From Candidatus Altiarchaeota archaeon (GTDB taxonomy: Archaea; Altiarchaeota; Altiarchaeia; IMC4; JBDREA01), in the NCBI GenBank assembly GCA_043820265.1, contig JBDREA010000098.1, positions 1 through 46,369 on the forward strand: a stretch of 46,369 nt of DNA, given 5' to 3'. The notes below the pieces were generated by a model that made no database searches, was not told the origin of the DNA, and worked only from the letters and a program-made list of their open reading frames with translations. The position numbers and the translations under genes are program-made. The first letter of the stretch is position 1. The number at the start of each line of letters is the position of its first letter. Shown in pieces: positions 11,668 to 28,448 of the stretch.

Positions 11668-12228
11668 ATGAGCTCAGATAAATTGAAGGGTAAACACAAG
11701 ATGATTCTCGGCACCACCATAATAGTCGCTTTAGTAGTACTCTTCATATCTACTTTAACTGTGGGTGCCCTGACCTACTACTTTCTTTTTTCAGATTCAG
11801 CTGAAAAACCACTTGAGGAACAAAACATCGGGCAAACAGATAACCAAGCCACTGAAGTCATTCCGACTTCATCTACTCTCTACGGAAATTCGCCCGAGTC
11901 CCCAAAAGTAGACTCCACCTCGACAATCATGGTCTCCACTTCGACTTTCATCCCAACAACGACCTCATTAAATGATACCACGACTGCTATTCCTGGAAAA
12001 GTTGAATGCGCCACAATAAAAGACTGCCCCGAAAACACTGTAACGTATATCTGCAAGGAAGGAAACGTCATCAGGAAAACCCAAAGCTTCTACTGCACAT
12101 ACCCCGGAACCGAGGAAAGCAGATGCAAGTCAAGGGAATACCAGTACACCGAAGACTTCTGCCAGAAAGGAGAGCGATGCATTGATGGAATGATCAAATG
12201 TCAATCCATAATAAATCAGGGTTCATGA
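11668..12228 (+). CDS. membrane-anchored protein with Ser/Thr-rich linker and Cys-rich domain
   Basis: N-terminal TM, STSTIMVSTSTFIPTTTS linker, 8-Cys C-terminal module. Confidence 0.75.
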   Translation: MSSDKLKGKHKMILGTTIIVALVVLFISTLTVGALTYYFLFSDSAEKPLEEQNIGQTDNQATEVIPTSSTLYGNSPESPKVDSTSTIMVSTSTFIPTTTSLNDTTTAIPGKVECATIKDCPENTVTYICKEGNVIRKTQSFYCTYPGTEESRCKSREYQYTEDFCQKGERCIDGMIKCQSIINQGS

Positions 12229-18392: not shown

Positions 18393-18470
18393 TAAAACCA
18401 CAAGAACAAATAAAAAGGCAGAACAAGTTAAAAAACAAACTGCTCTCAAAAAGGAAAGTGTCTGTTTAGC

Positions 18471-18572
18471 GGGATATACATAAGACCCCCCCTCGGTCAC
18501 GGAAAAGTTCCGCGCCCAAACTTTCAGGCCATTGTTCAATTTGTCAAATTTTGGGGGTCTTATGTATATCCC
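18471..18572. mobile_element. 102-bp MITE with 20-bp perfect TIRs and 14-bp TSD; candidate mini-casposon
   Basis: TIRs GGGATATACATAAGACCCCC (18471-18490) and GGGGGTCTTATGTATATCCC (18553-18572); direct repeats AGTGTCTGTTTAGC at 18457-18470 and 18573-18586, the latter overlapping the tRNA-Gln 3' end. Confidence 0.9.
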
Positions 18573-18582
18573 AGTGTCTGTT

Positions 18583-18655
18583 TAGCCCTGGGAGGATTCG
18601 AACCTCCGTCGTCGGTTCCAAAGACCAACAGGATAGGCCACTACCCTACAGGGCT
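18583..18655 (-). tRNA. tRNA-Gln(TTG)
   Basis: AGCCCTG/CAGGGCT acceptor; TTGGT-CTTTGGA-ACCGA anticodon arm; GGAGG-TTCGAAT-CCTCC T-arm. Confidence 0.96.
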
Positions 18656-18705
18656 GTGAGAATTGCTATTATATGCTGAAGGAGGCGAAGCCTCCTGAAG
18701 CTCCC

Positions 18706-18788
18706 TTCTTTCTTTTTCGTCACGCTCACGACCGGAGGTCGTGGCGCACAAGGAAACTTTGTTTCCTTCGTGACGTTTTTCTTTCTTT
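18706..18788. repeat. 83-bp repeat, copy A, with two bulged-hairpin modules (18723-18746, 18747-18772)
   Basis: 82/83 identical to 18888-18970. Confidence 0.92.
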
Positions 18789-18830
18789 CCGTAAACGCTT
18801 TCTTTCTTTTCCTAAAAGAAAGAAAGGGTT

Positions 18831-19032
18831 TGCGCCCACCGGGATTTGAACCCGGGTATTCAGCTTTCTCCGATCCCTTGTTTCGATTTCTTTCTTTTTC
18901 GTGACGCTCACGACCGGAGGTCGTGGCGCACAAGGAAACTTTGTTTCCTTCGTGACGTTTTTCTTTCTTTTCTAAAGAAAGAAAAAGGTTCTTGGAAGGC
19001 TGAAGTCCTAAACCAGACTAGACTATGGACGC
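18831..19032 (-). tRNA. tRNA-Gly(TCC) with 127-nt intron at 37/38 (18866-18992)
   Basis: GCGTCCA/TGGGCGC acceptor; TCAGC-CTTCCA^A-GCTGA; CCGGG-TTCAAAT-CCCGG T-arm; BHB with CTTC/GGAG helix and CAA, AAA bulges. Confidence 0.93.
18888..18970. repeat. 83-bp repeat, copy B, inside the tRNA-Gly intron
   Basis: One mismatch against copy A (G18903 vs C18721). Confidence 0.92.
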
Positions 19033-19120
19033 GTAGTTTGGTTTTTAAATTTCTAGGAATAATTTAAGACATTGTACTTAAAAAAAGTCTTTTTTAATTT
19101 TTGTGAGGTGTTTTTGGAAG

Positions 19121-19792
19121 ATGAAAGATGGTTTGATCGCTTTGAATATGAAGGTTTATGAGCAGTCTACTGGTGATGGTGGATTTAATATCGCTAAGTT
19201 GTGCGATGATGTGGCGTCGGAGTCGGGTGCTGATTTTGTGGTTTGTCCTTCTTCGGATTTGATTTTTAGGGTTTGCCAGGAAGTTGATATTCCTGTTTTT
19301 GCTCAGCATGTTGATAACTGTGGTTTTGGTTCTCATACGGGGAGGCTTCTTCCTGAGGCTGCTTTGGCTTCTGGAGCCTCTGGTAGCTTGATCAATCATA
19401 GTGAGCGTCGTTTGCAGCTTGCAGATATTGAGGCTTTGGTTGAGCGTTTGCGGGCTTTGAAGATGACTTCGATTGTCTGCAGCAATAATATTGCTACGAC
19501 TAAGGCGATTGCTGCTTTGGAGCCGGATTACGTCGCCATTGAGCCGCCTGAGCTAATTGGGAGTGGCATCAGTGTTAGCGCGGCTCAGCCTGAGTTGATT
19601 ACTGGAAGCGTTGATGCCGTCAAGGAGGTTTCCGGTAAGGTCAAGGTGTTGACTGGGGCCGGGATTTCGACGGGCGAAGATGTGAAGAAGGCGTTAGAAC
19701 TTGGCACGGTCGGGGTGTTGCTTGCATCCGGTGTTGTCAAGGCCAAGGATCCTAGGATTGTGCTTTTGGATTTGGTTGCCGGACTGGAATAA
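19121..19792 (+). CDS. tpiA: triosephosphate isomerase (archaeal type)
   Basis: NMKVY, AQHVD, GSHTG, LINHSERR, EPPELIG, GAGIS, GVLLASGV; GAGGTG RBS. Confidence 0.97.
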   Translation: MKDGLIALNMKVYEQSTGDGGFNIAKLCDDVASESGADFVVCPSSDLIFRVCQEVDIPVFAQHVDNCGFGSHTGRLLPEAALASGASGSLINHSERRLQLADIEALVERLRALKMTSIVCSNNIATTKAIAALEPDYVAIEPPELIGSGISVSAAQPELITGSVDAVKEVSGKVKVLTGAGISTGEDVKKALELGTVGVLLASGVVKAKDPRIVLLDLVAGLE

Positions 19793-28215: not shown

Positions 28216-28411
28216 TAGCTCAGCCTAGTGCGTGAGATTTCGCTACGCGAAATCTACGCCCTAAGGATGCGAAGCATCCTTGGGCACTAGGAATCACGAA
28301 GTGATTCCTGTGTGCAAGTTCGCTTTGAGCGAACTTAGCACCCAACGTCGATTTCATCGACGTTAGGGCGCAGAAATCCCAAAAGGGATTTCTCGCGGAG
28401 CGCGTGCTTGG
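28216..28411 (+). repeat. duplicated tRNA-Thr 5' half interrupted by six abutting bulged-hairpin modules (28231-28397)
   Basis: TAGCTCAGCCTAGTG + 167 nt + GAGCGCGTGCTTGG versus tRNA TAGCTCAGCCTGGTGGAGCGCGTGCTTGG. Confidence 0.88.
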
Positions 28412-28448
28412 CGAGAAAGTAAGAATAAACGTAAAGTAGAAAAATTAA

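Follow-up and report, generated by a model that had tools for sequence, protein, structure and literature searches.

An intron-bearing tRNA-Gly(UCC) gene of a Candidatus Altiarchaeota archaeon with a 50-nt double-hairpin insert and a second copy of it in the 3' trailer

In the transposed intron families of Thermoproteales, different tRNA genes of one genome share intron sequence (Fujishima et al. 2010, as summarised in PMC4090602), and intron transposition as treated there is the nearest published idea to the arrangement described below. The route by which archaeal tRNA introns arise "remains open", in the words of a 2026 preprint abstract (bioRxiv 10.64898/2026.10.13.758758). In the class II intrastrand triplex motif of the bacterial PIT/BoxC elements (Holder et al. 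2015, PMC4666352), pyrimidine, purine, and reverse-Hoogsteen purine domains follow one another on a single strand, with C-G-G and T-A-A triplets and short loops; the PIT/BoxC elements are G/C-rich, scattered through bacterial genomes, and linked to instability. The highest density of conserved MITEs among archaea is reported for Ca. Altiarchaeum hamiconexum in PMC11602168. Our literature search gave nothing on tRNA introns of Altiarchaeota: Altiarchaeum, tRNA, and intron were co-mentioned only in an unrelated context, and the word "intron" was absent from the Altiarchaeales comparison paper PMC4975002. A search for mirror repeats or triplexes at archaeal tRNA genes likewise returned nothing relevant.

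We analyzed a stretch of 46,369 nucleotides, the whole of contig JBDREA010000098.1 from a Candidatus Altiarchaeota archaeon (assembly GCA_043820265.1), which is called the window here. We assign a probability of roughly 0.7 to the reading that its tRNA-Gly(UCC) gene is a working, cis-spliced gene whose composite intron consists of an old 77-nt core and a 50-nt repeat insert copied between the intron and the trailer, with splicing deduced from the anatomy of the gene.

The tRNA-Gly(UCC) gene and its BHB motif

ARAGORN with introns allowed identified a tRNA-Gly(tcc) on the minus strand (18831-19032) that is interrupted after position 37 by an intron of 127 nt. The gene was missed by default ARAGORN and by Rfam at gathering thresholds, and was recovered with laxer Rfam filters as RF00005 (tRNA) at 18831-19032(-), with 45.3 bits (gathering 29), E=2e-8, and model positions 1-71. 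The cloverleaf was retained in the minimum free energy (MFE) structure; together with the span of the RF00005 match, this indicated that the exons form a complete tRNA. Because default finders overlook genes of this kind, the tRNAs of these genomes are undercounted. The exons, the intron, and the strands of the central helix of the BHB motif were placed as follows.

18993-19032, minus strand: 5' exon of tRNA-Gly(UCC), positions 1-37, with the anticodon TCC at 18994-18996 (ARAGORN, Rfam)
18866-18992, minus strand: intron of 127 nt at the canonical position 37/38 (ARAGORN, BHB reading, constrained fold)
18831-18865, minus strand: 3' exon of tRNA-Gly(UCC), positions 38-73 (ARAGORN, exon BLAST, Rfam)
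18995-18998, minus strand: 5' strand CUUC (nt 32-35) of the central 4-bp BHB helix, followed by the 5' bulge C36 A37|A at 18994-18992 (BHB reading)
18866-18871, minus strand: 3' strand GGAG (18868-18871) of the central BHB helix and the bulge AA (18866-18867) before A38 (18865) (BHB reading, constrained fold)

The initial annotation had proposed a canonical 37/38 intron with an intact BHB. The intron coordinates, 18866-18992, were identical in both analyses, and the proposal was borne out by the ARAGORN call, by the fully paired central helix, and by the constrained fold. The anticodon region formed an hBHBh' motif, in which the 5-bp anticodon stem UCAGC/GCUGA was followed by the central helix CUUC/GGAG (4/4 paired) with the bulges CA|A and AA|A, and by the distal helix GAACCUUU/AAGGGAUC (7/8 paired), to which GAACC (18987-18991) and 18872-18879 contributed. 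A manual reading of the anticodon loop as CUUCCA|...|A agreed with an intron at 37/38. Forcing the precursor into the canonical BHB gave -72.4 kcal/mol against -75.0 kcal/mol for the unconstrained MFE structure, a cost of 2.6 kcal/mol; the MFE structure preserved the cloverleaf and three intron hairpins (z=-5.8), and 0 of 200 shuffled sequences folded as well. Ten intron-bearing Gly-UCC genes, the present one and those of nine relatives, were compared. The central helix was paired 4/4 in nine of them and 3/4 in the remaining one, although its 3' strand varied among GGAG, GAAG, GAGG, and GAUG, and the distal helix was good in seven.

The genome under study, designated G000 (82% complete, 172 contigs), contained just one Gly-UCC gene by ARAGORN, its remaining Gly genes being GCC and CCC, and BLAST of each exon against it gave no second copy of either. 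Thus both methods failed to find, within this 82%-complete genome, an alternative Gly-UCC gene beside which the present one could be a pseudo-tRNA, as the initial annotation had considered. The gene order triosephosphate isomerase, tRNA-Gly, tRNA-Gln was conserved in the closest relative, and in the Gly-UCC genes of relatives the exons differed by changes that compensate each other within the anticodon and T stems. The neighbouring triosephosphate isomerase had its best match, at 77%, in an archaeon, against 54% for a Ca. Altarchaeum genome and about 59% for Thermococcus, a pattern that is not decisive for taxonomy. A split or permuted tRNA gene was rejected, the two halves being adjacent, ordered, and on one strand with a BHB in cis. 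When 18500-19150 was scanned with Rfam at E<=1, just two tRNAs exceeded the gathering threshold, and no credible small RNA comparable to the C/D box RNA of the tRNA-Trp intron appeared within the intron.

The splicing endonuclease was represented in G000 by a single PF01974 match, a short EndA, and the RtcB gene was intact. The EndA frame (contig C115, L040:1390-1986, minus strand) was interrupted by a TAG lying 19 codons ahead of a conserved C-terminal stretch, which continued in the same frame; the reading frame was without a stop in 5/5 relatives. The TAG may reflect a sequencing variant, truncation, or read-through, and it counts against reading the tRNA-Gly locus as a working gene. As judged from the anatomy of the gene, the precursor would adopt a cloverleaf that carries a canonical hBHBh' motif, both 3-nt bulges would be cut by the splicing endonuclease, and RtcB would then ligate the exons. 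Oligo-T tracts stop archaeal RNA polymerase. The T5 run at the start of the intron (CCUUUUUCUUU) may thus hinder efficient transcription of the 3' exon, which likewise counts against a working gene; such a run was also present in the introns of all relatives.

The double-hairpin insert, its repeat family, and its trailer copy

The tRNA-Gly locus was searched in 41 genomes, and 18 loci were taken from genomes other than G000 (L011-L039 minus those of G000). In 16 of the 18, a Gly-UCC gene was called by ARAGORN; seven of these genes were intron-free and nine had an intron, with lengths of 38, 47, 74, 77, 77, 84, 109, and 125 nt (the 125-nt intron in two records of one relative). The 77-nt introns of the relatives G013 and G017 aligned end to end with that of G000 except for one block (127 - 50 = 77), and in the alignment this single block was absent from G013, G017, and G039. 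Since the 77-nt introns align around one block, the intron is old and the 50-nt block at 18905-18954 recent. The comparison of intron length among relatives that the initial annotation had suggested therefore pointed to a lineage-specific addition of 50 nt. In a relative of the same genus the intron measured 125 nt, began with the same element, and continued with a different sequence that lacked the 50-nt module. Unrelated hairpins had been taken up by the same intron in G005, G017, G033, and G039, and such independent gains in several lineages identify the intron as a tolerant site. To that extent the suggestion that the intron is a "neutral haven" was supported, but "neutral" oversimplifies the matter: the element that hosts the insert is conserved and structured, and the insert occupies its centre loop. 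The insert and the copy of its surroundings behind the gene are located below.

18905-18954, no strand assigned: 50-nt double-hairpin module, between CGT (18955-18957) and TCACG (18900-18904) (covariance-model matches; gap against the 77-nt introns)
18706-18788, minus strand: 83-nt copy of intron positions 18888-18970 with one mismatch, in the 3' trailer of tRNA-Gly, with the module copy at 18723-18772

On the plus strand, the first hairpin of the insert, CGC-t-CACGACC-gga-GGTCGTG-GCG, occupied 18905-18928 (24 nt), and the second, CAC-AAGGAAAC-ttt-GTTTCCTT-c-GTG, occupied 18929-18954 (26 nt); both sequences were base-exact as first reported. Each has a CGC/CAC base, one bulged base, and a stem of 7-8 bp. 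Each hairpin core occurred twice in the window against 0.06-0.07 expected, a count attained in 0 of 100 shuffles. Put back together, CGT and TCACG give the empty-site centre CGTTCACG, so that no target duplication is needed, and the scaffold is itself palindromic; neither a target duplication nor terminal inverted repeats were seen at the insert site. The earlier claim that the intron was enlarged to 127 nt by one module family held for these two GC hairpins, which account for the 50 nt, and failed for the U/A-rich hairpin, which is part of the older 77-nt core. The intron may therefore be pictured in two layers: an old core of 77 nt, made of the splice-site-adjacent helix (GAACC.../...GGAUC) and a three-part pyrimidine/purine element, and a 50-nt insert of two abutting hairpins, which would have entered the centre loop where no pairing is disturbed.

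A structural scan of G000 detected 34 module loci with the scaffold ACGC-T-stem-loop-stem-G-CGCGC-stem-loop-stem-A-GCGT, which is identical on both strands. The family unit has a CGC/GCG base, one bulged base, and a variable stem of 8-9 bp, and two units stand head to tail. A high-copy exact repeat was rejected: the exact hairpin sequences occurred at just two places in G000, and the scaffold, not the sequence, defines the family. We built a covariance model from an alignment (A3) of 44 single-hairpin units from 22 other loci, with the intron hairpins excluded. In this alignment 96.2% of the stem cells were paired, compared with 65.6% in shuffles, 133 stem cells were changed on both sides against 31.7 expected, and G-U accounted for 4 of 478 stem cells. 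The model nevertheless matched both intron hairpins, at 18929-18956(-) with 23.2 bits (E=1.3e-4) and at 18903-18928(+) with 21.5 bits (E=4.7e-4). The two GC hairpins are thus members of the module family of this genome, as had been claimed, by a model built without them. It also matched the trailer copies at 18747-18774(-) and 18721-18746(+). With filters off, the window held 11 matches at E<0.01, all in three tRNA-adjacent clusters (1322-1377, 18721-18956, and 28229-28399). The first of these is a two-hairpin module about 50 nt upstream, on the promoter side, of an intron-bearing tRNA-Ser(UGA) (1420-1548), and the last is an array of about six units just upstream, again on the promoter side, of the tRNA-Thr(GGU) at 28448.

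Hairpin matches were distributed patchily among genomes, with 47 in G000, 15 in the same-genus G001, 73 in the distant relative G030, and 0-6 in the other 38 genomes; 19 of the 41 genomes had no match at E<=0.01. Within G000, 18 of the 34 module loci lay inside or within 150 nt of detected tRNA genes, windows that make up 0.69% of the genome; 16 had no detected tRNA nearby, and four were inside tRNA introns. The patchiness, the two-strand symmetry, and the scarcity of G-U together agree better with a palindromic repeat at the level of DNA than with an RNA under selection.

Duplicates of the T arm and the acceptor 3' strand were also observed behind complete tRNA genes of G000 (C2:9090-9146, C136:6233-6288, C168:11683-11735 and 11775-11821, and C141:21974-22042), with a two-hairpin module held in the T-loop (59/60) of the duplicate. 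Modules as T-loop introns of hidden tRNA genes were rejected, since their removal in silico at 20 sites yielded no new tRNA; the four sites with tRNA calls after removal were known upstream genes, and the duplicates are therefore 3'-end fragments and not genes.

The insertion point in the tRNA-Gly intron was identical to those in the tRNA-Gly trailer, the tRNA-His trailer, and the tRNA-Arg(ACG) intron, and the modules at these four sites were mutual closest relatives, which suggests that one event possibly spread with the host element. The identical insertion points could accordingly represent one old insertion carried along with its host element, as opposed to a site preference. The events are not independent, since this type of host element accommodates both two of the 34 loci and the three modules most closely related to the insert.

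The intron and trailer copies of the 83-nt block were 182 nt apart and had different flanks. The block runs from a purine arm through centre, module, and centre to a second purine arm, and its borders lay inside the low-complexity purine arms and not at the splice sites. In the trailer, a complete module-free element (18776-18830) was followed by an extra centre, a module, and an arm. The insert with its purine arms would have been copied either from intron to trailer or from trailer to intron. The likeliest route would be a recombination or template-switching event between the purine arms, which are nearly identical, and no dedicated enzyme would be needed for it.

Near-identical copies so close together are difficult for short-read assemblers, and two further readings have to be weighed: a dead gene, or pseudo-tRNA, and a chimeric contig that received the 83-nt repeat twice through mis-assembly. 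Contigs from three public DNA runs of one study contained intron-free Gly-UCC genes of other community members. A contig of run X1 covered 18649-18834, and with it the trailer copy, with three differences, while none of the public contigs extended over the intron interior, which is not evidence of absence; the coverage of the region by these contigs counts neither for nor against the gene or its intron. We regard either reading as very improbable. The exons are intact and belong to the sole Gly-UCC source found, the BHB is perfect, and the 77-nt intron of relatives is extended to 127 nt by exactly 50 nt placed in a loop. Moreover, a single base distinguishes the two copies, and their flanks are not the same.

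The initial annotation had seen the intron as a neutral parking place from which the modules spread as RNA, the excised and possibly circular intron being copied back into DNA at new sites. Some observations are in keeping with this: the Gly intron tolerates 38-127 nt and gained hairpins independently in several lineages, a block derived from the intron recurs in the trailer, tRNA introns host four of the 34 module loci, and the routes of archaeal intron gain are still open according to the preprint abstract cited above. Against it, the scaffold is symmetric across the strands, and the proportion of G-U pairs (4/478) is that expected of DNA palindromes and not of RNA-selected stems. Furthermore, 30 of the 34 loci lie outside introns, including the promoter-side sites and the 16 without a tRNA nearby, the copied block has its borders in purine arms instead of splice sites, and its sister copy resides in an unspliced trailer. 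The symmetric scaffold, the few G-U pairs, the tRNA-distant loci, and the unspliced trailer copy together point to copying at the DNA level, and we consider spread through RNA quite unlikely.

The pyrimidine/purine element of the intron core and tRNA trailers

The U/A-rich hairpin at 18958-18986 had a perfect 13-bp stem. As a candidate member of the GC-hairpin module family it was rejected, because it belongs to a core element found order-wide. This element has the layout (A)ACC, pyrimidine run (Y), loop of 3-5 nt, complementary purine run R1, centre CGTT(S)ACG, and second purine run R2. Its parts in the intron and its module-free form in the trailer are listed here.

18974-18986, minus strand: pyrimidine run Y (UUUUUCUUUCUUU), 5' arm of the U/A-rich hairpin (hairpin search, BHB reading)
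18958-18970, minus strand: purine run R1 (AAAGAAAGAAAAA), Watson-Crick partner of Y, with the loop AGA at 18971-18973 (13-bp perfect stem)
18887-18900, minus strand: purine run R2 (GAAAAAGAAAGAAA), mirror image of R1 and putative third-strand domain of a class II triplex motif, also read as (G)AAAAAGAAAGAAA (sequence reading; family-wide mirror test)
18776-18830, minus strand: module-free Y/R1/centre/R2 element directly behind the 3' end of tRNA-Gly (mirror 13/13), consisting of AACC, Y at 18814-18826, R1 at 18798-18810, CGTTTACG at 18790-18797, and R2 at 18776-18789

G000 contained 19 pyrimidine/purine hairpins with a stem of at least 8 bp, and 14 of these stood directly behind a tRNA 3' end (nine) or a 5' exon (five). 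All 14 tRNA-linked hairpins were in the sense orientation, with R2 invariably on the far side. The Arg-ACG, Met, Trp, Gly, and Val introns of this genome start with the same element, and the relatives searched also gave matches to the element part of the query. Since many tRNA 3' ends, both in G000 and order-wide, are followed immediately by this element, the intron core and the tRNA trailers are homologous.

Several further observations were made on this element and on the surroundings of the gene. Full pyrimidine/purine/mirror elements without a detected tRNA in front were found in G000 at C154:21435-21467, C10:6423-6445, and C42:1245-1268; these may mark genes for tRNAs or other stable RNAs that are invisible to ARAGORN. 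In the closest relative, the tRNA-Gln(UUG) gene (L075:988-1185) had a 123-nt intron that opens with the same pyrimidine/purine element, while the tRNA-Gln(UUG) of G000 in the same syntenic place (18583-18655) was intron-free. Behind the latter, at 18457-18586 of the window, was an element of 102 nt, single-copy in G000, that is bounded by perfect terminal inverted repeats of 20 bp (18471-18490 and 18553-18572). A direct repeat of 14 nt flanks this element, and the second copy of the repeat extends over the final 4 nt of tRNA-Gln. Two tRNA-Ser genes on another contig (C162:1436-2032) encoded their CCA end and looked bacterial, in contrast to the rest of the tRNAs in G000, and this contig may be foreign or contaminating.

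The mirror relation between R1 and R2 was tested on 44 distinct sense elements with a centre of at most 14 nt, taken from G000 and the loci of relatives and comprising 32 different R1 strings. R1 and R2 were perfect mirrors over their whole overlap (8-16 nt) in 41 of the 44 elements, and in two of the three exceptions the script had mistaken an inserted module for R2. When R1 and R2 were re-paired 1000 times, the number of perfect mirrors was 10.8 +/- 2.6, with a maximum of 20, against the 41 observed; the copies are related and non-independent, and these figures overstate the case. In the comparison of mirror with direct orientation, the mirror orientation won 35 times, tied nine times, and never lost. 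We know of no DNA rearrangement that produces mirror repeats. Loop 1 is 3 nt long, and loop 2, which is 7-8 nt in empty elements, is 58 nt in the Gly intron because the module sits inside it. The strands show a three-way covariation for which a triplex, predicted from the sequence, is the only explanation that we have. Were the triplex to form, the centre would be a loop, and insertions would be tolerated or even attracted there. We tentatively propose, as a possibility that we hold to be less probable than its contrary, that an intrastrand triplex element is located at tRNA 3' ends and behind 5' exons, that the introns are captured or copied trailers, and that the centre loop is a preferred landing site for hairpins.

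The same distribution also raises the question of whether anything selfish is involved, since the hairpins and the pyrimidine/purine element could be signals of tRNA expression, acting in termination, 3' processing, protein binding, or protection from integrating elements, with the intron copy retained for its function. The proximity of 18 of the 34 module loci to tRNA genes (inside or within 150 nt, in 0.69% of the genome) agrees with such a role, as do the order-wide, sense-only occurrence of the core element beginning right at tRNA 3' ends and the co-variation of its three strands. The GC modules, however, vary from 0 to 73 copies among related genomes and have no match at E<=0.01 in 19 of the 41, their stems are freely variable, the same-genus relative lacks the insert in tRNA-Gly, and a terminator within an intron would harm the gene. 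We therefore judge this explanation unlikely and retain that of a working gene with an old intron core and a later repeat insert.

Significance and comparison with known systems

The intron core is recognisable as a tRNA 3' trailer element, and nested within it is a dated, exact insertion of 50 nt. Together these provide testable sequence evidence for the origin of an intron from flanking DNA and for its later growth by repeat insertion; if the tentative proposal made above is true, they would also give a concrete sequence trail for the origin of archaeal tRNA introns. Under the same proposal, a nucleic-acid triplex would be a working part of tRNA gene architecture, in termination, in end protection, or as a recombination hotspot. 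If the triplex holds up, the mirrored purine run would represent a kind of conserved structure that is unusual at tRNA genes.

The tRNA-Gly intron is a member of the canonical class of archaeal BHB introns processed by EndA and RtcB, with which it shares the 37/38 position, the hBHBh' geometry, and the predicted cleavage after the second bulge base; G000 has RtcB and a single short EndA gene, the latter with the in-frame TAG. Such introns are usually a few tens of nucleotides long, whereas this one has 127 nt and a repeat nested in a conserved triplex-type element. As in the Thermoproteales families, intron sequence is shared across tRNA genes of one genome; in G000, which belongs to another lineage, the shared element doubles as a standard tRNA 3' trailer, a feature outside the description given in PMC4090602. 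With PIT/BoxC the element has in common the domain order and the triplets, but it is A/T-rich, archaeal, and conserved order-wide, and it is fixed at tRNA 3' ends and intron starts, while the term "tRNA" is absent from PMC4666352. The insert is a member of the double-hairpin repeat family of this lineage. Like REP, BIME, and REPIN sequences and archaeal MITE-like repeats, the modules of this family are short palindromic hairpins that are paired or arrayed, multicopy, patchy, and non-coding. They differ from these in having a fixed CGC...GCG scaffold whose stems are variable from copy to copy and show compensatory changes, and in their strong clustering at tRNA genes.
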